Assembly (NCBI GenBank): GCA_963743915.1
Contig: CAVURN010000001.1
Coordinates: 544,001-608,000 of the forward strand
Origin: an uncultured Actinomycetota bacterium
GTDB taxonomy: Bacteria; Actinomycetota; Actinomycetes; JAHEKZ01
DNA: 64,000 bases
Direction: 5' to 3'
Below are positions 4,484 to 18,845 of the stretch, in pieces. Within the stretch, counting starts at the first letter, position 1, and each line of letters opens with the position of its first letter. A program made the position numbers and the translations under genes. The notes below the pieces were generated by a model. It was given only the letters and a program-made list of their open reading frames with translations. It did not search any database and had not been told where the DNA came from.

Positions 4484-5369
4484 CCCCCACCCTCCGGTGA
4501 GCCAGCTCCACAGCGCGTGAACGGGGGCCGAGCACGGCCTGCAGCGACCTGAGCATGGCCGAGCAGGCCAGCTGGTCACTGCGCTGGACCACCGACGGAC
4601 GTGGCCGCGAACCCAGTGCTTCGTGCGCCCACGGCGGGAGCAGGTCGGCGGCCGCGCGCACGAGCACCTCGTAGGCCGGCCACGCGCCTACAGGCAGCGC
4701 TCGCCCCGGGAAACGCAGGAAGCGCGCGACCGCCTGAGTCTCCAACCCGCCTCCGACCTCGGCGGTGAAGGACGCGATGGCTGCCTGCAGCTCGCGGACC
4801 GTCCGCGGTGGTTCCGGCACGCCCAGCGCACGTGCGAGTACGCCCATCTCGTCGACGTACCGGTCTGCGTCGACCGTGCCCGTGCCGTACCGCTGGTACG
4901 CGAGGAGCATCGACTCAGTGAGACCGACGTGCACCCACAGCAGCAGCCGGGGGTCCTGGGCCGAGTACGCACGACCGTCGGGCGCGATGCCGACGACCCG
5001 CTCGTGGACCCGGCGGACCATGGCCGCTGTCTGCTCGGCGAGCTCGGTGGTGCCGAACGTCGAGGTGGTCACGTACAGGTTGGTGCGCTGGAGCCGACCC
5101 AACGGGTCCTCGCGATAGCTGGAGTGCTGTTCGACTCCCGCCAGTGCGAGGGGGTGGCACGCCTGCAACATCAACGCTCGGACTCCCCCGACGAGGGTGG
5201 CCAGGCTGCCGTTGACCTCCCATGCCGCGCTGTCAGGGCCGAACCAGCCGGCGTCCCCGGGGCGTCCGATGGCTTTCACCCAGGGAGGCTCTCCGTCGGG
5301 GTCACCGGACAGGATGACGCGGAAGTTCCGTCGAACGGCGTCGGCGCCCGGCAGTGGCAGGATGCTCAC
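4464..5369 (-). CDS. DUF2236 / MpaB-like oxygenase family protein
   Basis: GWFGPDS..W.V, GGVRALMLQACHP...AGVEQHS.YREDPLGRLQRT, YSAQDPRLLLWVH. Confidence 0.85.
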   Translation of the reverse strand: MSILPLPGADAVRRNFRVILSGDPDGEPPWVKAIGRPGDAGWFGPDSAAWEVNGSLATLVGGVRALMLQACHPLALAGVEQHSSYREDPLGRLQRTNLYVTTSTFGTTELAEQTAAMVRRVHERVVGIAPDGRAYSAQDPRLLLWVHVGLTESMLLAYQRYGTGTVDADRYVDEMGVLARALGVPEPPRTVRELQAAIASFTAEVGGGLETQAVARFLRFPGRALPVGAWPAYEVLVRAAADLLPPWAHEALGSRPRPSVVQRSDQLACSAMLRSLQAVLGPRSRAVELAHRRVGVSAPSR

Positions 5370-5434
5370 CGCACCAGCATGCCGTCCGACCGCGGTCGGC
5401 GCAGGTCGAGGTGCCCGGAACGAGGAGGGGGCGC

Positions 5435-5899
5435 ATGCACCCGAGCAACATCCGTGTGCAGGAGTCGCTGGCCGCGGCCGGGGTCGAGGCGCACGTGCGG
5501 CGACTGCCGGAGTCGACGCACACGGCTGCAGCGGCGGCCGAGGTCCTGGGGTGCTCCATCGGAGCCATCGCCAACAGTCTGGTGTTCATGGCCGACGACG
5601 CACCCATCCTGGTGATGGCCAGTGGGGCGGCGAAGGTCGACACGGCTCTGCTCGCCACGCTCATCGGCGTCCGCGAGGTCCGTCGGGCCAACGCCGACGA
5701 GGTGCGCGCGGCGACCGGGTTCCCGATCGGGGGCGTGGCCCCCGTCGGACACCCGAAGTCGCTGCGGACGTGGATCGACGTCGAGCTGGAGCAGTATCCG
5801 GAGATCTGGGCTGCCGGCGGCACGCCGGACAGCATCGTCGGGCTGACCTATGAGGGACTGCTGACGGCAACAGGCGGAACGCCTACGCGCGTCCGCTGA
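5435..5899 (+). CDS. YbaK/EbsC family aminoacyl-tRNA editing domain protein
   Basis: THTAAAAAEVLG...IANSLVF, TGFPIGGVAPVGH, IWAAGGTP; GAGGAG before ATG 5435. Confidence 0.88.
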   Translation: MHPSNIRVQESLAAAGVEAHVRRLPESTHTAAAAAEVLGCSIGAIANSLVFMADDAPILVMASGAAKVDTALLATLIGVREVRRANADEVRAATGFPIGGVAPVGHPKSLRTWIDVELEQYPEIWAAGGTPDSIVGLTYEGLLTATGGTPTRVR

Positions 5900-5940
5900 T
5901 CCGCGGGGACGTCGAGTCCCCCGGCTGCCACGTGTCCGGC

Positions 5941-6696
5941 TCATCCGTCCGGCTGCGCCGCGATCGTGTCCAGGTCGCGCAGAGCGAAGCGGAGGTGCTC
6001 CCACTCCTCCTCGAGGATCACGTGCAGGCACGACAGCACCGTCTCCTCGTGCTCGGGGGCATGGGGATTTCTCCTCGGCTCGGCCAGCACCTCCGGTGTG
6101 ACGGTGGCCAGGAAGTCGTCCACCATCTTCACGCGACCCGCCCGGACTTCGAGCACCTCGGCATAGGCAGGGATGACGGTCGTGAAGATCGACAGGTCGT
6201 GGCCGTCTTCCCCGAAGCCGGCATCTGCTTGACCGATGGGGTGGAACGGCTGCTCGATCTCCAGGATCGACCGGCCCAGCCATGCGTCCGTGGCGAGCAC
6301 CAGGTGCCGCAACGTCTGCGCGAACGACCACTCGCCACCGACCGAGACGTCGACGGTGCCGGGAGGCATCGACGCGACCCGATCGAGTGTCGTCGTCCAG
6401 CTGCCCTGCAGGGTGACCCAGGCCTTTCGCAGGCCGTGCGGGTCCTCCGCGCGACGCTCCACCCGGCCGGGAAAGCGCCGGTTGAGCTCGGCCTCGACCA
6501 GGGGGACCACGTCGACGCCGTTGACCACCAAGCCCGCACCCTCGGAGAGCCACGGCGCGTCGATATCTGCCCCCGCCAGGTCGACGCCACGCATGACCAC
6601 CCCCGACAGGTCCGCCGCGACGAACCGGGCTCCGCGCAGATTCACGTCCCTGAACTCCGACGCTTGCAGGTCGTCGGAGCGGCTGAAGGTCACCAT
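5941..6696 (-). CDS. DinB family protein with N-terminal pentapeptide repeats
   Basis: LRGARF/DLSGVV/DLAGAD pentapeptides; GEWSFAQTLRHL and CLHVILEEEWEH DinB motifs. Confidence 0.85.
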   Translation of the reverse strand: MVTFSRSDDLQASEFRDVNLRGARFVAADLSGVVMRGVDLAGADIDAPWLSEGAGLVVNGVDVVPLVEAELNRRFPGRVERRAEDPHGLRKAWVTLQGSWTTTLDRVASMPPGTVDVSVGGEWSFAQTLRHLVLATDAWLGRSILEIEQPFHPIGQADAGFGEDGHDLSIFTTVIPAYAEVLEVRAGRVKMVDDFLATVTPEVLAEPRRNPHAPEHEETVLSCLHVILEEEWEHLRFALRDLDTIAAQPDG

Positions 6697-6707
6697 CGGC
6701 TCGTCCT

Positions 6708-7577
6708 CTAGCTCTGGAGCGCGCTGATCACGTCGACCCCGACCTTGAGGAAGTCCTTCCGCTGGTCGCTCGTGGGGGGGTAGAAGATGAACTCGGTGAA
6801 ACCGAGCGGCGCGAACCTCTCCACGAGCCGGGGAACTGCCGAGTGGTCGCTCCACGCGTCGAAGGCCTCGTCGAAGGCGAGCAGCGAGCGGGTGAGGCTC
6901 GTTGGATCGCGACCGATTTCGGCGAGGTAGTCGTCGAGCATCGCGCAGCGTTCGCTCATGCCGCGGTGGAACTCGTCGATGTCGGTGATGTCGATCCAGG
7001 CATTCCAGGTGTCGGCCGCCCGAGCCGCCATCTTGGCGATGCGCGGACCGTTGCCGGCCAGGGCGATCGGCAACCGAGGCTGCTGGACGCAGCCCGGCGC
7101 CATGGCCGCGTTGGTGTACTGGGTGAATGTCCCGCTGAAGTCGCTCGTGTCCTGACGCAGCAGACGGTCGATGACCGCGGTGCCCTCCTCCAACCGGTCG
7201 ACGCGCTCCTTGGCCGACATCTCGTGCACGGTCCGGCCCGCCATGAGCTGGTCGTCCACCTGCCCACAGCCCAGCCCGAGCACGAACCGCCCGTTGCTCA
7301 GCTGGTCCACCGTCATGGCGAAGCGGGCCACCTGGACGGGGTCGCGCCAGGCGAGGTTGGTGACGAGCATCCCCAGCTCCAGGTCCTCGGTCTCCGAGGC
7401 CAGGGCACCGAGCGTGACCCACGGGTCCAGCAGCGGGGCGGGCCGGTCACGCCAGTCGCCCAGGGTGTCCCCGACCCACGCCGTGTCGAACGCGGTGTCC
7501 TCCATCCGCATGGCGAGGTCACGGCTGTGCTTGGTGTCGCGCGGGATGATGTACACGCCGAAGGAGAGGTCCGCCAT
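6708..7577 (-). CDS. LLM class flavin-dependent oxidoreductase (luciferase-like)
   Basis: FDTAWVGD, LDPWVTLGALA, RDPVQVARFAMTVDQLSNGRFVLGLG. Confidence 0.88.
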   Translation of the reverse strand: MADLSFGVYIIPRDTKHSRDLAMRMEDTAFDTAWVGDTLGDWRDRPAPLLDPWVTLGALASETEDLELGMLVTNLAWRDPVQVARFAMTVDQLSNGRFVLGLGCGQVDDQLMAGRTVHEMSAKERVDRLEEGTAVIDRLLRQDTSDFSGTFTQYTNAAMAPGCVQQPRLPIALAGNGPRIAKMAARAADTWNAWIDITDIDEFHRGMSERCAMLDDYLAEIGRDPTSLTRSLLAFDEAFDAWSDHSAVPRLVERFAPLGFTEFIFYPPTSDQRKDFLKVGVDVISALQS

Positions 7578-7672
7578 GCCCGTGATCGTGCCACAGGGCT
7601 GGGCAGGCACACTCGAACCCATGCGGCTGCGCCACCTGATCGACCGGCGCTGACACGGGCCGACTGCGCCGG

Positions 7673-9658
7673 CTAGCGGGACAGCTCGGGCAGGTCGCGG
7701 AACGCGTCGAGCGACTCGGGGTTGGCGAGGGCCTCGCGGTTGCGCACCTCGCGTCCGTGGATCACGTCGGCCACGGCGAGCTCGGCCAGCTTGTTGCTTC
7801 GGGTGCGCGGAAGGTCGTCGACGGCCACGATCCGGGCCGGCACGTGGCGGGGCGAGCAGTTCTCCCGCAGCGTGCGCTTGATGGTGGTCACGAGGGAGTC
7901 GTCGAGCTCACGCCCGTCGGCCAGCCGGACGAACAGCACGATGCGCGTGTCGTCGTCCCACGCCTGCCCGACGGCCAGAGCCTCGACGACCTGGGGCAGC
8001 CGCTCGACCTGCCGGTAGATCTCGGCGGTGCCGATCCGGACGCCGCCGGCGTTCAGCGTCGCGTCGGAACGACCGTGGATCACCAGTCCGGCATGCGGCG
8101 TCCACGACGCGAAGTCACCGTGCGCCCACACGCCGGGGAAGCGGTCGAAGTACGCACCGTGGTACCGCTCGCCCGTGGGGTCGTTCCAGAAGCTGACCGG
8201 CATCGACGGAAAGGGCACCGTGCAGACCAGCTCGCCGTGCCTGCCTGGCTCACCCTTGAGCGAGGCGCCCGTCTCGTCGAAGACGTCGACGGCCATGCCG
8301 AGCACGGGTCCTTGGATCTCGCCGCGGTAGACCGGACGGGTGGGGTCACCGGCGACGAAGCAGCCACAGATGTCGGTGCCGCCCGAGATCGAGGCCAGGT
8401 GCACGTCGGACTTGATCGACCCGTACACGTACTCGAAGCCCTCGTCCACCAGCGGAGAGCCGGTCGACGCGATGGTGCGGAGCGTGCTGAGCCGGTGTGT
8501 GCGCAGCGGGTGGAGGTCTGCCTTGCGTGAGGCGTCCAGGTACTTGGCGGAGGTGCCGAACAGGGTGATGCCGAGCTCGTCGACGAGGTCCCACAGCCGT
8601 TCCGGGTGAGGGTGGAACGGTGACCCGTCGTAGAGAACCAGCGATGCGCCGCAGGCCAGTGCCGACATCAGCCAGTTCCACATCATCCAGCCGCACGTCG
8701 TGAAGTAGAAGACGACGTCGCCCGGCCCGACGTCGCAGTGCAGCCGCTGCTCGACCGCGTGCTTGAGGGTCAGGCCGGCGCCGCTGTGCACGATGCACTT
8801 GGGGGCCCCGGTGGTCCCTGAGCTGTAGAGGATGAATCCCGGTGCATCGACAGGGAGTCGCAACGGCGCGCTGGGTGCGGTCGACGCGCCACTGGCCAGA
8901 GCCTCGTCCCACCCCGTCGCCACAGGGATGCCGTCGAGCGAGGGGTTGGGTTCCAGCTCACCCACGACGACGGTCGCGCGGACCGAGGGAAGCCCGGCCA
9001 CGACCTCGGCGAGCCGGTCGATGCGCGGTTGGTGCTTTCCGGCGTAGACGTAGCCGTCGGTGCCGACGAGCACCGTGGGCTCGACCTGCCCGAACCGGTC
9101 GAGCACCCCCGCGACCCCGAAGTCGGGTGACGTCGAGGTGAAGACAGCACCGACCAAGGACGTCCCGAGCATCGCCACCAAGACCTCGGGGGTGTTGGGC
9201 AGCCACGCAGCGACGCGGTCACCGGGCTGGACGCCGTGCGCCAGCAGGAAGCCGGCGAAGGCGTACGCCTGAGCCTCCAGCTCCGCCCACGTGAGGGTGC
9301 GTCGGACGTCGTCCTCCCGGACGAACGTGACGGCGGTCGTCGCGGAGTCCACCCCGGCGCGCTCGACGCCGTGCAGCAGGTTCTCGCCGTAGCAGACCCG
9401 GGCACCGGGAAAGAAGCGGGCGCTCTCCATGCCGTCGGCGCCCTCGGTACAGGCGGGGCCGTCGCCGCGGTCTCCGACGACCCAACGCGCGAACACGCTG
9501 TCCCAGAAGTCGCCGGGGTGGTCGACCGACCACCGGTGCACGGCTTCGGAGTCAGGGAGGGCGAGCCCGGTCGACTCCGCGACGGCGCGTCGGAAGGCGT
9601 CGAGCTGGGTGGCGGCGACGCGGTCAGGCGCCGGCGTCCAAAGAGGGGTGTCGGTCAC
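7673..9658 (-). CDS. Acetoacetate--CoA ligase (acetoacetyl-CoA synthetase)
   Basis: YSSGTTGAPKCIVH, YFTTCGWMMWNW, SISGGTD, GRSDATLN, PRTRSNK, LANPE. Confidence 0.93.
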   Translation of the reverse strand: MTDTPLWTPAPDRVAATQLDAFRRAVAESTGLALPDSEAVHRWSVDHPGDFWDSVFARWVVGDRGDGPACTEGADGMESARFFPGARVCYGENLLHGVERAGVDSATTAVTFVREDDVRRTLTWAELEAQAYAFAGFLLAHGVQPGDRVAAWLPNTPEVLVAMLGTSLVGAVFTSTSPDFGVAGVLDRFGQVEPTVLVGTDGYVYAGKHQPRIDRLAEVVAGLPSVRATVVVGELEPNPSLDGIPVATGWDEALASGASTAPSAPLRLPVDAPGFILYSSGTTGAPKCIVHSGAGLTLKHAVEQRLHCDVGPGDVVFYFTTCGWMMWNWLMSALACGASLVLYDGSPFHPHPERLWDLVDELGITLFGTSAKYLDASRKADLHPLRTHRLSTLRTIASTGSPLVDEGFEYVYGSIKSDVHLASISGGTDICGCFVAGDPTRPVYRGEIQGPVLGMAVDVFDETGASLKGEPGRHGELVCTVPFPSMPVSFWNDPTGERYHGAYFDRFPGVWAHGDFASWTPHAGLVIHGRSDATLNAGGVRIGTAEIYRQVERLPQVVEALAVGQAWDDDTRIVLFVRLADGRELDDSLVTTIKRTLRENCSPRHVPARIVAVDDLPRTRSNKLAELAVADVIHGREVRNREALANPESLDAFRDLPELSR

Positions 9659-9679
9659 GGCTCCATCTTGCCGTGAGGG

Positions 9680-9955
9680 TCACCGCAAGGGGCGCAACGG
9701 GATCAGAAGACTGCGGATGACCGGCGGGTCGGGGTACCGGACCTCCTGCACCGTCATGTGTCCGGTGGGGGTGTCGGTGCCGGAGTGCGGCGACTCCACC
9801 CCAGAGGTGGAGAGCCAGAAGTCGACCATCTCGTCGAAGGCGGTGGCCTGGTCCTCGTCGATCAGGTTGCGCACCCCCGAACGAGGGTCGACCCAGCCGA
9901 TGGCCCGCCCCCGGTCGTCCAGCACGTCGATGCGGTCAGCCACAGGTGGCGTCAT
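9680..9955 (-). CDS. Hypothetical protein (about 91 aa)
   Basis: Natural composition, AAGGGG RBS before ATG 9955; no family recognised. Confidence 0.5.
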   Translation of the reverse strand: MTPPVADRIDVLDDRGRAIGWVDPRSGVRNLIDEDQATAFDEMVDFWLSTSGVESPHSGTDTPTGHMTVQEVRYPDPPVIRSLLIPLRPLR

Positions 9956-10134
9956 GGCGCACCCCTTCCGTCCCCCTGCTGAGCATTGCCCACTTCCCTT
10001 CGATGGTTGTCGGCGCGACACACCACCGAGTTGATCCCACGCCGGCCCGAGGGTTGCGCCGATCGGGTGACACGCCCGAAGGAGCAGGCGGTGCCAGGCC
10101 GATCTCCTGGCCAGACAACATCCCTGGAGGTCCT

Positions 10135-10704
10135 GTGGCCGCACGCAAGAACCCGGTCGTCATCGACGATGCCCCGGGGGACGTGGCGGACGTCCCGGTC
10201 CCCGAGCTCGACGACGTCATGACCGATGCGTCCGCCGTCGACGCCGAGCTGCCGTCGGACGAGGGCGATACCGGCGCCGACGCGAGCAGCGACACGCCCG
10301 CCGAAGGTCGGCGCAGGGGTCGGGTCGTGGTGCTGGCGATCGCCGCGGTGCTCGCCGCGTCCGGCGCGATCTGGGCAGCGGGCAGTCTCGGGGAGCCGGA
10401 TCCGCAGGGCCTGCCCCCGGCCATCTCCGACCCGGCCGTCGTCGTGTCGGCACTCGACGCGGGCGGGATCTCCTGCACCGGTTCGGTCGTCAGCGGTGAC
10501 GTTGCCACCTGCAACGCGACCGTGGCGGTCCGTGTGTTCGACTCCGAGGACGCGGCGGACGCCTGGGTCACCGACCTGCTCGACGACCCGCTGACGAGCT
10601 CGGCCTTCGGATGGGTCCAGCACGGCAACGTCGTGGTGTCGGCCCCGCTGAACGCCGCACCGGACGTCGCCGCGGCCCTCGGCCCCGCCGCGACCGTCCG
10701 CTGA
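10135..10704 (+). CDS. Hypothetical single-pass membrane protein
   Basis: GGAGG RBS before GTG 10135; acidic N-terminus, RRRGR plus TM helix, then a domain with two Cys. Confidence 0.65.
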   Translation: MAARKNPVVIDDAPGDVADVPVPELDDVMTDASAVDAELPSDEGDTGADASSDTPAEGRRRGRVVVLAIAAVLAASGAIWAAGSLGEPDPQGLPPAISDPAVVVSALDAGGISCTGSVVSGDVATCNATVAVRVFDSEDAADAWVTDLLDDPLTSSAFGWVQHGNVVVSAPLNAAPDVAAALGPAATVR

Positions 10705-10764
10705 CGAGTCCGACCGTCCGACCGCGCACTCGACCGCTCCCGCCCGCTCGCGCCTCCCGGGTGT

Positions 10765-10786
10765 TGTCAGCAGCGCTGGGTACCGT
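10765..10786 (+). promoter_or_regulatory. PafBC-type (RecA-NDp) DNA-damage promoter, leaderless into sbcD
   Basis: TGTCAG-cagcgctggg(10 nt)-TACCGT fits TGTCRG-N10-TA-N3-T; ATG 7 nt after the -10, no SD. Confidence 0.7.
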
Positions 10787-10792
10787 CCCCAT

Positions 10793-12012
10793 ATGCGGCT
10801 GCTGCACACCTCCGACTGGCACCTGGGACGCGGCCTGCACGGTGTCGACCTGCACGTCGCCCAGCAGCACGTGCTCGACCAGATCGTGGCGCTGGTGGCC
10901 AGTCGCGGCGTCGATGCCGTCCTGATCTGCGGTGACGTGTTCGACCGGGCGGTGCCCCCGGTTTCCGCCGTCCAGCTCTGGGACCGGACGCTCCGCGCAC
11001 TGTGCGAACAGGTGCCCGTCGTCGTCATCCCCGGCAACCACGACTCCGCGCCACGGCTGGGGGTCGGCGCCGACCTGTTCCGGAGCGGCGTCCACGTCGT
11101 GGCCGACGTCGACGCGGTGGGGACGCCGGTGACCCTCCACGACGACCACGGTGCCGTGCGCATCTACCCGGTGCCCTTTCTCGACCCCGACGTGGCCAGG
11201 CACGCGTTGGCGGGGGCGAGTGACACCCCGCTCCCGCGTTCGCACGAGGCGGCGATGGCGGCGGCGATGGCCCGCATCCGTTCCGACCATGCCCGACGCT
11301 CTCAGGACGTCCCGGCGCGCATCGTCGTGATGGCGCACGCCTTCGTCGTGGCCGGAGCGGCCGGCGCGCTCCCCGCGGGCGACGGGGCGGGGGGTGGTGA
11401 GCCCCAGCGCAGCGACAGCGAGCGCGACATCCGGGTCGGTGGCGTCGACAGCGTGCCTGTCGACGTGTTCGACGGCATCGACTACGTGGCCCTCGGCCAC
11501 CTGCATGGCGCCCAGCGGGTCGAGGGGCCGCAGCGCAGCGGACGCGTCCGGTACAGCGGATCCCCCCTGCGCTACTCCTTCAGCGAGGCGGCGCAGCACA
11601 AGCAGGTGGCCATGGTCGATCTCTTGGCCGACGGCTCGGTCGAGGTCGAGACCGTCGAGCTCGAGCAACCCCAGGGGATGTCCGCCGTTGCCGGCTCGCT
11701 CGAGCGCTTGCTCACCGACCCCGGGCTCACCGAGGTCGAGCGGTGCTGGGTCCAGGTGACGGTCACCGACCCCGCCCGACCGCCCCAGATGGTCCCCCGC
11801 GTCAAGGAGCGCTTCCCGGACGCGCTGGTGGTGCGGCATGTCCCCGCCACGGGTCCGCTCGCGACCAGCAGCCATGTCGGCGTCCCGGCGTCCCCACTGG
11901 AAGTCGCCGAGTCGTTCGTGCGCTACGTGACCGGTGGCGACATCACCACCGTCGAGCTCGACGTGTTCCGTGACGCGTACGAGCAGGTGCTCGCGTCGGG
12001 CCGTGAGGCCTG

Positions 12013-12013
<1 letters not shown>
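10793..12013 (+). CDS. sbcD: Exonuclease SbcCD subunit D (Mre11-like)
   Basis: HTSDWHLG, GDVFD, GNHD, YVALGHLH, RYSGSPLRYSFSE. Confidence 0.95.
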
Positions 12014-15020
<3,007 letters not shown>

Positions 15021-15024
<4 letters not shown>

Positions 15025-15782
15025 GCGCCGGCCGACAGACACCACCCCCACGGCTGCGCAGCAAGGTCTCGGCGCAGGAGCGCGCCCTCATCACCGATGC
15101 CGTGGGTCCGCTCGCCGACGACCGTCTGGTGCGCGCCGTGCGCGACGGCCGGGGGCGTGAGTTCCAGCGCTTGGAGTTCCTCGGCGACTCGGTGCTCGAC
15201 CTGGTGCTCGCCGCCCATCGGTGGGTCGAACCGACATGCCGTGCGTGTCGCGACGCCCCGCAGGTGGCCAGTGACCGTCATCTCGCACAGGTCGCCAGAG
15301 CGGCGGGGCTCGGCGCCTGGCTCGAGTGGGACGCCTCCGACGACCGCATCGCCGATCTTGTCGAGACGTGCGTGGCCGCGACCTGGCTCACCGGTCGCTG
15401 GCCACGAGCGGTGGGGTTCGCGGCGAGAGTCGTGCACCCGTTCGGCGACGCCACTGGCCGGCTGCTCGCGGCCGGGGGACAGAGCCTGCCGCCGGGCCGT
15501 GAGGCGCGCAGGGTGGGGGCGGCCGTCCTCGAGCTCGCGGCCGCCTCGGGGTTGTTCGACGAGCTGGCGCTTGCCGACGAAGGTGAGTTGTCGCGTCGAC
15601 GCGCACTGCTCCATGAGGCCGACCAGGTCGCCGCGCGGGTGAGGCAGCGGCAGCAGGTCGGCGGTGACGTGGAGACCGTGGTCAGTCGGGTCGAGGACGC
15701 GCTCGCGGCGCAGCTCGCCGACGTCGGAGCGGATGCCGCGCTCACCGCTGCGCGACCCTTGCTGGGGTTCGCGGGCGGCTAG
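15021..15782 (+). CDS. Tandem RNase III-domain protein (one intact, one degenerate domain; no dsRBD)
   Basis: Domain A: QRLEFLGDSVLDL...LAQVARAAGLG...IADLVETCVAA; domain B: RRVGAAVLELAA..GLFDE..ADEGELSRRRALL...VSRVEDALAAQLADVG; GTGA overlap with sbcC stop. Confidence 0.8.
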
Positions 15783-15792
15783 GCTGCGCGCC

Positions 15793-16647
15793 GTGGCCGA
15801 CTACGTGTACCCACCTGTCATCGCAGCGGTCTCGGGGGCGTTCAAGGCACTCGGCCTGGCGATCCGCGTCGAGGGCGGTCACCACGTGCCCACCAGCGGG
15901 CCGGCGGTGATGGCGTCCAACCACATCAGCCACCTCGACTTCATCTTCGTCGGGCTCGGCGCGCGTGGCTCACGGCGCTACGTGCGTTTCATGGCGAAGG
16001 AGTCGATCTTCGCCCACCGGGTCGCCGGGCCGCTGATGCGCGGCATGCACCACATCTCGGTGGACCGCGAGGCAGGACTGCAGAGCTTTCGCGACGCGAT
16101 GGCTGCCCTGAAGGCGGGGGAGGTCGTCGGGCTCTTTCCCGAGGCCACTATCAGCCGGTCGTTCGAGCCCAAGGAGTTCAAGTCCGGCGCCGAGCGGCTT
16201 GCCAAGGCGACCAAGGCGCCACTGATCCCGGTCGCGGTGTGGGGCAGCCAACGCCTGTGGACGTACGACGAGCGGGCCACTCTCCGGCAGCGTGGCGTGC
16301 CGGTGAGCATCTACGTCGGAGAGCCGATCGATCCGACGCTGCGCGGCGAGGCGGCCAGCGACGAGCTGCGAGCCCGCGTGATCGAGCTGGTGCGCCGCGC
16401 CCAGGACGAGTACCCCGAGCCGGGCACCGGTCAGTGGTGGCAGCCGACCCGTCTCGGTGGCACGGCACCGCCCCCCGGCGACTTCGACGAGCGGCGCGCC
16501 CGACACCTGCAGGCCCGCCAACGCCAGGACCGCCACGGTCACGCCGCAGGACGCCTGGGATCGGGGCGGTCCAGCGGCGGTGGGGCTCAGGTCAGGCGGC
16601 CCCACCGATCGGGCCGGCGTGCGCAGCCTCGTCCTTGCTCACCTTGA
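15793..16647 (+). CDS. Lysophospholipid acyltransferase (PlsC family); 3' end uncertain
   Basis: SNHISHLD (HX4D), FMAKES, FPEATISRSF; the tail overlaps the convergent MFS gene and may be extended by a frameshift. Confidence 0.85.
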   Translation: MADYVYPPVIAAVSGAFKALGLAIRVEGGHHVPTSGPAVMASNHISHLDFIFVGLGARGSRRYVRFMAKESIFAHRVAGPLMRGMHHISVDREAGLQSFRDAMAALKAGEVVGLFPEATISRSFEPKEFKSGAERLAKATKAPLIPVAVWGSQRLWTYDERATLRQRGVPVSIYVGEPIDPTLRGEAASDELRARVIELVRRAQDEYPEPGTGQWWQPTRLGGTAPPPGDFDERRARHLQARQRQDRHGHAAGRLGSGRSSGGGAQVRRPHRSGRRAQPRPCSP

Positions 16648-18160
16648 TGGCGAACAGCGTGATGAAGAAGGCGAGGATCATCAGGCCCGCCGACACCTGG
16701 AACGCCGCGGTCCAGCCGTCGACGGTCGCGGTCACCGTGGCGGCCTGGACCTGCTGCTCCGTGGGCTGGGCTCCGCCGGAGACGATCGCGGTCAGGGCGT
16801 CGTCGAGGTTGGTCGACAGCACCGTCACGAAGACGGTCGTCAACGCCGCCAGACCGATCGAGCCACCGATCTGCTGGCTGGTGTTGAGCACGCCCGACGC
16901 GATGCCGGCGTCCCCTTCGTCGATCTGCGACACGGCGGCCAGCGTCAGCGGCATGAAGGTGAAGCCCATGCCGAGCGCGAAGACCACCATCGGGCCGAGC
17001 AGTCCGGTGACGTAGGTGGAGTCGGGCTCGATCTGGGCGAGCCAGATCATGCCCACCGAGGCCAGAGCGGTACCGAGCAGGGCCAGAGGCTTGGCCCCGA
17101 CCCGGGTGATCACCTGGGACGCGGTGCCGGCCGACAGGATGATGCAGACGCTGACCGGAAGGAAGGCGAAGCCGGCCTGGATCGGGCTGTAGCCCAGGAT
17201 CTCCTGCACGAACTGCGTGAGGTAGAAGAACATTCCGAACATGCCCGCCCCGATGATGAGCATGACGCCGTAGGCGCCCGCCCGGTTGCGGTTCTCGAAG
17301 ATGCGGAGCGGCATCAGGGCATGCCGGCTGCGGGCCTCGAGGATGAGGAACACGACGAGCAGGACCACTGACACGCCGATGAGCGCCAGGTTGGTGCTGT
17401 CGGTCCATGCAGCAGTGGCCGGCGAGTCGACGCCCGCGGTCGCGTTCTCGCCGATGTCGGTGGCGATGCGGGTGAGGCTGTAGACCAGCAGGGCCAGTCC
17501 GGCCGTGGCGGTGATCGCGCCGGGCAGGTCGAACTTGCCGGTGTGGCGCTCGGTCTCGTGCAGCGCCCGCGGGGCGACGAGCGCGATGAAGATGCCGATC
17601 GGGACGTTGACGAACATGACCCAACGCCAGTCGATCTCGGTGAGGAACCCACCGAGGATCAGGCCAACCGCTGCGCCCGCGCCCGACATGGCGGCATAGA
17701 CGCCCATGGCCCGGTTGCGCTCCTTGCCCTCGGGGAACTCGGTGGCGATCAGCGACAGGGCGGTCGGTGCAGCGATGGCGGCGCCCAGGCCCTGGAGGGC
17801 GCGGAAGGCCAGCAGCGACCCTTCGCTCCAGGCGAAGCCCCCGCCGAGCGAGCCGATGGAGAAGAGCCAGATGCCGAAGATGAAGACCCGGCGGCGTCCG
17901 AGGATGTCACCGGCACGTCCGCCGAGCAGCAGGAACCCGCCGAAGGCGAGCGTGTAGGCGGTGAGTACCCACTGCAGGTTGGCCGGCGTGAAGCCGAGGT
18001 CCTCCTGGATGCTCGGCAGCGCGATGTTCACGATCGTCGCGTCGAGCACCACCATGAGCTGAGCGGTGCAGATGACCACCAGCGCGAGCGCCAAGTTCTG
18101 TGCCGGGGCGATGTGGTGCTCCTCGGCCCCTTCGGTGGTGGTGCGGTCGGGGGTGGACAT
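16592..18160 (-). CDS. MFS drug:H+ antiporter (DHA2, EmrB/QacA-like)
   Basis: LDATIVNIALPSI, GGRAGDILGRRR, RALQGLG, WRWVMFVNVPIG, about 14 TM; start MSTPDR at 18160. Confidence 0.92.
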   Translation of the reverse strand: MSTPDRTTTEGAEEHHIAPAQNLALALVVICTAQLMVVLDATIVNIALPSIQEDLGFTPANLQWVLTAYTLAFGGFLLLGGRAGDILGRRRVFIFGIWLFSIGSLGGGFAWSEGSLLAFRALQGLGAAIAAPTALSLIATEFPEGKERNRAMGVYAAMSGAGAAVGLILGGFLTEIDWRWVMFVNVPIGIFIALVAPRALHETERHTGKFDLPGAITATAGLALLVYSLTRIATDIGENATAGVDSPATAAWTDSTNLALIGVSVVLLVVFLILEARSRHALMPLRIFENRNRAGAYGVMLIIGAGMFGMFFYLTQFVQEILGYSPIQAGFAFLPVSVCIILSAGTASQVITRVGAKPLALLGTALASVGMIWLAQIEPDSTYVTGLLGPMVVFALGMGFTFMPLTLAAVSQIDEGDAGIASGVLNTSQQIGGSIGLAALTTVFVTVLSTNLDDALTAIVSGGAQPTEQQVQAATVTATVDGWTAAFQVSAGLMILAFFITLFAIKVSKDEAAHAGPIGGAA

Positions 18161-18195
18161 GCAACTCCTTGGGTGGGTTGGGGGGAGCGGGTGGG

Positions 18196-18810
18196 CTAGG
18201 AGACGGTGTGGGGCGAACCAGACGTGAGCAGCGGCAGCCAGATCTCGTCGACCAGGCGCGTGAGGTACGCCTCGTCGACGGGGTGCGGGGTGAGCAGGTG
18301 CCGGAACACGAGCATGCCGGGGACGACGTCCACGAGGAACTGAATATCGGTCGCCTCTGACACCTCGCCCCGCCGCTGGGCGCGTCGGACGATCGCCAAG
18401 GCGAGGTCGCGTTTGTGGCTGATGATCTGGCTCTGGAACGCGCGCGCCATCTCCGGGTCGGTGGCGCAGGCCGACACCATGCCGCGAATCACGCAGAGCT
18501 GCTCCTCCGCCCCAGGGCCGTGGGTGCCGAGGAGCAGCGCCAGCAGGTCCCCGCGCAGGGTGCCGGTGTCGGTCGAGGTCTCGTCGGGGGCGTCGCCGAG
18601 CAGCCTGATCGCGTCGACGACGAGGTCTGCCTTGGACGGCCAGTGCCGGTAGAGCGTGGCCTTGCTGGCTCCGGCGCGCCGGGCGACGGCGTCCATCGTC
18701 ATCCGGTCGTAGCCGACCTCCTGCAGCTCGGCCAGGGCGGCTCGAAGGATCTCGCCGTGCCGGCCCGCGTCGAGGCGCCGCAGTCGGGCGGCGACGGCTT
18801 GAGGCGTCAT
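18196..18810 (-). CDS. TetR/AcrR family regulator
   Basis: GYDRMTMDAVARRAGASKATLYRHWPSK HTH; DTGTLRGDL. Confidence 0.92.
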   Translation of the reverse strand: MTPQAVAARLRRLDAGRHGEILRAALAELQEVGYDRMTMDAVARRAGASKATLYRHWPSKADLVVDAIRLLGDAPDETSTDTGTLRGDLLALLLGTHGPGAEEQLCVIRGMVSACATDPEMARAFQSQIISHKRDLALAIVRRAQRRGEVSEATDIQFLVDVVPGMLVFRHLLTPHPVDEAYLTRLVDEIWLPLLTSGSPHTVS

Positions 18811-18845
18811 GGGCGGGGCTCCGGGATGTCAGCAACGAGAACGCA

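Follow-up and report, generated by a model that had tools for sequence, protein, structure and literature searches.

A tandem RNase III protein of actinomycetes with one live and one dead domain, a candidate nickase of duplex RNA

In this paper we describe a protein in which two RNase III domains are fused in a single chain, the first with a complete catalytic site and the second with a dead one. It is encoded in a stretch of 64,000 nucleotides (nt) from an uncultured Actinomycetota bacterium (contig CAVURN010000001.1, positions 544,001 to 608,000), which we call the window. The open reading frame (ORF) of this tandem RNase III protein (P0001) lies on the plus strand at 15021..15782 and is complete, with 253 amino acids (aa) plus a stop codon. 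A first-pass annotation of the window had proposed that this ORF contains two RNase III folds, of which only the N-terminal one keeps its metal-binding acids, that it lacks a double-stranded RNA-binding domain (dsRBD), and that it nicks duplex RNA. The two folds are borne out by family profiles, by profile alignment with hhalign and by a fold search with the second domain alone. Taking all the evidence together, we consider it reasonably probable that the protein is a minimal single-chain RNase III without a dsRBD, which would function as a monomer, with a single active centre that nicks one strand of a duplex.

The first domain, domain A (15066..15443, aa 16-141), is identified as an RNase III catalytic domain by Pfam, hhalign and structure alignment. 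The Pfam family PF00636 (Ribonuclease_3) matches aa 49-125 with an E-value of 8.7e-10 and a score of 39.7 bits against a curated cut-off of 27. As the reference for hhalign we aligned 53 canonical sequences of bacterial RNase III (loci L030-L082), and the family profile of domain A matches this alignment over 123 columns (E 5.9e-26, probability 99.7%). The four metal-ligand columns are occupied by E52, D56, D112 and E115, so the tetrad is complete; we take their counterparts in E. coli to be E41, D45, D114 and E117. E52 and D56 belong to the signature motif FQRLEFLGDSVLD (15162..15200, aa 48-60), read from the translation. The second pair of ligands is found in D112-L-V-E115 (15354..15365), within the ADLVE of aa 111-115, and aligns to the canonical LADxxEA motif. 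For the conservation of these and all other residues we used an alignment of 146 of 168 proteins, those with a length of 215-340 aa, leaving out the 22 outside this range. Each residue of the domain A tetrad is kept in 145 of the 146 homologs, the exception being the 219-aa protein P0109.

One segment of domain A is not canonical. An EPxCxxC loop occupies the place of the DEG motif, as part of a loop H66...C73-x-x-C76 (15216..15248) that replaces the canonical EGxLS segment and is conserved among the homologs. H66 is found in 128 of them, C73 and C76 in 120 each, C117 in 117 and H139 in 127. C117 (15369-15371) and H139 (15435-15437) lie around this loop. From this pattern of conserved residues, H66, C73 and C76 with H139 and C117 may form a structural zinc site. 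The loop and its histidine and cysteine residues are missing from a distant subgroup of 311-330 aa, which consists of L096 (identical in the alignment to P0141), L097, L098, P0138 and P0147.

The second domain, domain B (15447..15770, aa 143-250), likewise adopts the RNase III fold, and its catalytic site is dead. Its signal in single-sequence searches is weak: Pfam gives a marginal match to the C-terminal half alone (E 0.05), and the best match in a search of the Protein Data Bank (PDB) has an E-value of 0.066. The family profile of domain B aligns to the canonical reference over 89 columns (E 1.5e-14, probability 98.3%), and the profiles of domains A and B match each other in hhalign with an E-value of 1.7e-7. 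Each half of the protein thus matches RNase III by profile. The profile of the whole family matches solved bacterial RNase III chains best via positions 147-253, with E-values of 1.3e-6 for C. jejuni 3o2r_A, 2.6e-6 for E. coli 7r97_A and 9.8e-6 for M. tuberculosis 2a11_A. Folded alone from an alignment of 18 sequences, domain B gives a model with a mean predicted local distance difference test score (pLDDT) of 89.4. We compared this model with 48,161 PDB representatives in a search that does not rely on Foldseek. RNase III folds make up all of the top 29 rows, with Z-scores of 7.4-11.9, and after these Z falls to 6 or below. Among them are Giardia Dicer 2ffl_A (Z 11.7, root mean square deviation (rmsd) 3.0 A over 109 of 111 residues) and C. 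jejuni RNase III (Z 11.1), and B. subtilis Mini-III 4oun_A scores 10.5. The family profiles, hhalign and the fold search of domain B alone rule out that this half of the protein is a non-homologous helical tail.

The loss of the catalytic site in domain B can be read from the same alignment. Its degenerate signature R160-E-A-R163-R-V-G166-A167-A-V-L-E171-L (15498..15536) corresponds to the canonical ERLEFLGDSVLDL, with R160 to A167 lying on ERLEFLGD. V-S222-R-V-E225, of which S222-R-V-E225 (15684..15695) is the counterpart of D112..E115, aligns to LAD-x-x-E. The ligand columns of domain B are therefore occupied by R163, A167, S222 and E225, the first three as had been noted from the sequence. 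Only domain B carries an EGxLS-type motif, D186-E187-G188-E-L190-S191 (15576..15593); the surrounding P-x-ADEGELS-x-x-RA aligns to the canonical P-x-x-x-EG-x-LT-x-x-RA. The observation that the DEG motif is confined to this domain holds as well.

The connection between the two domains is short (15432..15497, aa 138-159) and, judged from the secondary structure, contains a helix at aa 143-151, with pLDDT above 95. It tolerates insertions, because a tandem repeat of GHLE with A or S is found there in 3-5 copies in L010 (about 8460-8500), P0063 and P0065, and because the distant subgroup has about 27 extra residues in the linker. With E-values up to 10, Pfam finds two RNase III models and no other domain within the 253 aa. 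In particular there is no match to dsrm, in agreement with the first-pass annotation, and the two domains fill the chain.

Among the homologs the pattern of a live domain A and a dead domain B is fixed. A full tetrad in domain B is found in 0 of the 146 homologs. The residue counts are R 110, A 20 and E 7 at position 163; S 75, A 59 and D 3 at position 167; S 65, D 62 and N 9 at position 222; and E 110, D 12 and Q 12 at position 225. Other residues of domain B are strongly conserved, namely G166 (144), E171 (135), E187 (135), G188 (134), L190 (140), S191 (132) and R194 (142). The distant subgroup, with its longer linker, has a more canonical-looking domain B with A, D, D and Q on the ligand columns, so the essential glutamate is replaced there too. 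The domain B of L096 outscores its domain A on Pfam Ribonuclease_3 (best stretch aa 204-294, E 3e-25).

We also calculated the ratio of non-synonymous to synonymous substitution rates (dN/dS) for 18 coding sequences, of which 94 of 153 pairs were usable with a dS of 0.05-2 in both halves. Over the 94 pairs domain A has a median dN/dS of 0.27 and domain B one of 0.37, and the four least diverged pairs give 0.15-0.19 for A and 0.15-0.26 for B. Purifying selection thus acts on both halves of the protein, domain B included. Random decay of domain B, which would have spoken against a dedicated dead partner, is ruled out by the residue conservation together with dN/dS.

The family is rare. A word-indexed search found 124 homologs at an E-value of 0.001 or below, mostly of 250-260 aa and from metagenomes and actinomycete metagenome-assembled genomes (MAGs), and an exhaustive search of 1.84 billion cluster representatives yielded only 56 at the same threshold. 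A search of a protein atlas returned generic RNase III-like clusters only. Among 401 sampled genomes of the class, 28 match at an E-value of 1e-10 or below. Twenty-two of these are the genome of the window, 17 of the 19 other genomes of its own family, and four genomes of two other families. Matches in the own family are partly cut at contig ends, and those in the two other families cover both halves of the protein. The remaining 6 genomes match only about positions 38-154, which is ordinary rnc. The tandem form is therefore found mainly within one actinomycete family. Related loci are assigned to Actinomycetes and Candidatus Nanopelagicales, with a distant partial relative in Candidatus Blastococcus massiliensis. 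This last locus (L029, 7659-8831, strain AP3) has 39% identity over aa 8-197 and matches Pfam Ribonuclease_3 weakly (E 5.4e-4). No other relative comes from a named isolate, and this one could offer a culturable route to genetics.

The origin of the tandem form was examined with a tree containing 17 domains of each kind, A and B, together with the first 40 of the 53 canonical domains (133 columns, unrooted, without eukaryotic or viral sequences). The A-domains form one clade (support 97/100) and the B-domains another (99/95), and the same three subgroups are found inside each. This points to the tandem form having arisen once, after which A and B diverged together. The tree does not resolve whether A and B are most closely related to each other and is silent on any relation to Drosha, Dicer or the Mimivirus protein R343 discussed below. 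A search for longer fused forms among homologs of 444-2000 aa found none, which is weak evidence.

The predicted structure bears on how the two domains pack. The full-length AlphaFold2 model, built from an alignment of 40 sequences, is all-helical, with a pLDDT of 95.1 and a predicted TM-score (pTM) of 0.93. Its best matches in Foldseek are the tandem domains of Drosha and Dicer, the first being 9asm_A (E 1.5e-5). The query-normalised TM-score is 0.53-0.68 in the first 17 rows. Single bacterial RNase III domains, which cover half of the model, reach about 0.38. In VIA-align, Drosha 5b16_A aligns to 245 of the 253 residues (Z 18.3, rmsd 3.9 A) and DCL3 7vg2_A reaches a Z of 17.7, with single bacterial domains aligning over about 123 residues to positions 16-140 at a Z of about 9. 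The two domains can thus be superposed jointly on an RNase III dimer of the intramolecular kind. Domains A and B are thus predicted to pack into a Drosha/Dicer-like pseudo-dimer, the arrangement that a structural model had been expected to reveal.

The mechanism we propose builds on this model. The two tandem domains would fold back on each other to form within one chain, as in Drosha and Dicer, the dimer that bacterial RNase III builds from two chains. Domain A alone would hold two Mg2+ ions with its four acids E52, D56, D112 and E115. Domain B would be a conserved, non-catalytic built-in partner that makes the duplex-binding valley complete and contributes the EGxLS motif lost from domain A. 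The arginines R160, R163 and R164 stand where the metal ligands of domain B used to be, and they may fill the dead site or hold the strand that is not cut. Each time it bound an A-form duplex, the monomer would then hydrolyse a single strand, and the result would be a nick or, in a stem, a cut on one side only. In known RNase III enzymes the site contains two Mg2+ ions on four carboxylates, and E110 of Aquifex, the same residue as E. coli E117 and the equivalent of E115 here, is essential (PMC3867540). The two sites of RNase III are independent, and engineered heterodimers with one dead site nick double-stranded RNA (dsRNA) (PMC3867540).

The closest functional precedent is Mimivirus R343. According to its description (PMC4402537), R343 has tandem domains, the N-terminal one with complete catalytic and metal residues and the second without metal ligands. 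It shows metal-dependent cleavage in vitro inside an RNA hairpin and was proposed to be a monomer that nicks the hairpin rather than excising it (PMC4402537). By this description, R343 and Megavirus Mg559 share with the actinobacterial protein a live first and a dead second domain. They differ in having a dsRBD after each nuclease domain, where the actinobacterial protein has none, and in belonging to giant viruses of amoebae and not to a bacterium. Since RNase III sites act independently, and since R343 is a tested enzyme of the live/dead tandem type, we expect that the actinobacterial protein probably cuts one strand only. Catalysis, the monomeric state, the choice of strand and RNA as the substrate are what we infer by this analogy. 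The earlier interpretation is supported as regards structure and plausible as regards enzymatic activity. Candidate substrates are dsRNA, RNA:DNA hybrids and DNA.

Other known systems share one or another part of this design. The RIIIDa-RIIIDb domains of Drosha and Dicer have the same tandem order and the same pseudo-dimer packing, the latter for our protein in the model only, and the sequence identity in the structural alignments is 15-18%. In Drosha and Dicer both sites are active, and the proteins carry PAZ, helicase, dsRBD and other modules as well as long linkers, whereas the actinobacterial protein has 253 aa and one live site. Bacterial rnc and Mini-III have the catalytic fold and signature motif in common with it, and Mini-III likewise lacks a dsRBD; however, both are one-domain chains that homodimerise to give two identical sites, unlike a fused pair with one site. 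For the same reason the protein is not a Mini-III, and it scores 39 bits against a cut-off of 166 for TIGR02191, the class 1 rnc equivalog, with a second RNase III domain in the place of the dsRBD. The logic of pairing a live with a dead domain, giving one cut per binding event, is shared with the trypanosome pairs of KREN1-3 with KREPB4/5, which are thought to use it, and with engineered E. coli heterodimers (PMC3867540). In the trypanosome pairs the two domains sit on different polypeptides, which also carry zinc fingers and PUF domains, and the E. coli heterodimers are laboratory constructs. Plant chloroplast RNC1 also has tandem RNase III domains in one chain and is expected to self-associate; both of its domains are catalytically silent, while domain A of our protein is intact (PMC3867540).

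The gene lies in high G+C DNA and its GTG start sits within the GTGA that closes an upstream gene of 1003 codons. The N-terminus of the homologs is conserved from about residue 6 of the protein. The genome of the window (5 contigs, 2.9 Mb) also carries a normal rnc with a dsRBD, so the tandem gene is an extra paralog, and a mis-called or fused rnc is ruled out. It belongs to a tight cluster on the plus strand that starts with an sbcD-like gene (10793..12013; Pfam Metallophos and SbcD_C), followed by the 1003-codon sbcC-like gene (12013..15024; Pfam AAA_23 and SbcC_Walker_B), in which the zinc-hook CPVC is conserved and whose stop overlaps the RNase III start by 4 nt. A gene for a PlsC-type acyltransferase (15793..16647; Pfam Acyltransferase, E 2.1e-27) follows on the same strand 10 nt downstream. 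In a scan of 10400-17000 nothing resembled a promoter, and a single terminator-like site, on the minus strand, is within chance expectation.

We examined the neighbourhoods of 27 relatives. The close clade comprises 18 loci (L003-L020), and in 16 of them sbcD-sbcC is directly upstream, being absent in L019 and L020. Fifteen of the 18 loci have the acyltransferase gene downstream, and the remaining three stop at a contig edge. In 14 of the 16 loci with sbcC its stop overlaps the RNase III start by 4 nt, L011 having a gap of 5 nt and L014 a different arrangement; going by these overlaps, the tandem gene appears to be translationally coupled to sbcC in this clade, a point that the first-pass annotation had not raised. 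In the second clade (L021-L028, about 40-45% identical), all 8 loci have a MaoC-domain gene upstream, and an SSB-family gene and then a gene for an ABC-F ATPase downstream. The SSB-family paralog and the ABC-F ATPase gene are on the same strand, at about 8790-11160 of each locus, and the ABC-F proteins are 87-97% identical between loci. A search of five genomes located sbcD elsewhere in four, from the second clade, and did not find it in the fifth, the host of the close-clade locus L019. In the distant subgroup a gene for a short-chain dehydrogenase/reductase (SDR) follows, in L096 at 7187-8991 on the minus strand with a 4-nt overlap and in L097 at 7906-9790 on the plus strand, and the RNase III proteins of these two loci have 329-330 aa. 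The coupling to sbcC is thus specific to one clade, whose cluster also includes a lipid gene.

This coupling raises the question whether the protein works on DNA-linked structures. Because the gene is coupled to sbcC in its own clade, its target may lie in the processing of nucleic-acid ends or hairpins, which we offer as a lead only. A stronger version of this idea keeps the same architecture and lets the protein act with SbcCD on the RNA strand of RNA:DNA hybrids, on RNA-bearing DNA ends or on DNA. It draws on the upstream sbcD-sbcC and the 4-nt overlaps in the close clade and on the SSB-family gene that follows in all second-clade loci. However, an unrelated acyltransferase gene belongs to the same cluster, sbcD lies apart from the tandem gene in four of the five genomes searched and was not found in the fifth, the third subgroup adjoins an SDR gene, and lipid-metabolism neighbours are as frequent as those of DNA metabolism. 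Canonical RNase III enzymes are, moreover, specific for dsRNA (PMC3867540). On balance we think this reading unlikely. Its most specific form, in which the protein is a dedicated third component of SbcCD, an RNase III-fold nickase that would remove or nick RNA in hybrids with DNA, in R-loops or on RNA-bearing ends where SbcCD processes hairpins and breaks, seems to us quite unlikely. Drosha and Dicer have reported roles at DNA damage sites, and such a component, if real, would be a bacterial counterpart of these roles. A complex prediction with SbcD 1-340, the SbcC head (1-205, 805-1003) and the tandem RNase III protein gave 'no answer' with a score of 0.00, which is neutral on binding.

Two further explanations were weighed. 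Two chains might associate, as a dimer of pseudo-dimers or by an A-A'/B-B' swap, which would create two active centres and ordinary double-strand cuts. RNase III domains do generally tend to homodimerise (PMC3867540), and a single-chain prediction is blind to intermolecular alternatives. Yet the connection between A and B is short, conserved and confidently modelled, and the whole model superposes on the intramolecular dimer of Drosha. In addition, the purifying selection on the interface and motifs of domain B fits a dedicated partner of A, and the mirrored topologies of the A and B clades are as expected of co-evolving partners. We regard such an association as rather improbable. A pseudo-dimer that only binds, as a non-catalytic duplex-RNA binding protein or chaperone, has a precedent in RNC1, where tandem RNase III domains serve as a non-cutting binding fold (PMC3867540), and one domain of our protein is already dead. 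But the ligands of domain A are kept in all but one of the homologs, across clades that are only 30-40% identical, and because the tetrad persists over such divergence a reading without catalysis is hard to hold and seems very unlikely.

Several points weigh against the monomeric nickase that we prefer. Catalysis is a prediction for every member of the family. The prediction of a monomer can only pack A on B, and two chains might instead pair A with A'. The protein may also bind its substrate differently from canonical enzymes, since it has no dsRBD and a cysteine loop takes the place of the usual RNA-contact segment in domain A. The neighbours vary by clade, so that the family as a whole has no conserved partner or pathway. 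Finally, one contig of 235 nt is all the evidence for expression. It is identical to 15493-15727 and comes from a library labelled as metatranscriptomic, which may contain DNA, and it gives only a weak hint that the gene is transcribed. DNA of the locus is present in sequencing runs of sediment, freshwater and root metagenomes. RNA-labelled runs contain fragments of the locus only, and the parts that they leave uncovered carry no meaning.

To our knowledge, the textbook view is that bacteria have one-domain RNase III only, as rnc and Mini-III, and that fused tandem domains are reserved for eukaryotic Drosha and Dicer, plant RNC1 and giant viruses. At 253 residues and with no accessory module, we know of no smaller enzyme of this kind. 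The family shows that bacteria, too, fused two RNase III domains and then retained one as a dead partner. The novelty that had been claimed for this layout needs to be narrowed. No described bacterial tandem RNase III was found in the literature, in a search whose coverage left out most subscription journals. The combination of a live and a dead domain in one chain, on the other hand, is a design known from giant viruses and so far tested only there, in the assays of Mimivirus R343 (PMC4402537). What is new is a conserved bacterial form of 253 aa without a dsRBD, found in actinomycetes and coupled to sbcDC in its own clade. If it does nick duplex RNA, the protein would lend itself, as a simple natural system, to the study of strand selection by a pseudo-dimer, and it might serve as a tool enzyme. 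It would then also help to show whether the coupling to sbcDC reflects a link between RNA cleavage and the processing of DNA ends or hairpins.

Some minor observations concern the surroundings of the gene. In three MAG contigs of the close clade (L006, L010 and L014, at about 5000-8000) the sbcC frame is broken, with high-scoring segment pairs in 2-3 frames and 6-26 stops read straight through, and these breaks may be assembly indels rather than signs of pseudogenes. In the window itself, a long ORF on the minus strand (16592-18835) converges on the cluster and, judged by eye from its hydrophobic sequence, looks like a multi-pass membrane transporter. It overlaps an ORF of 204 aa on the same strand (18196-18810) that, again by eye, resembles a TetR-type regulator.

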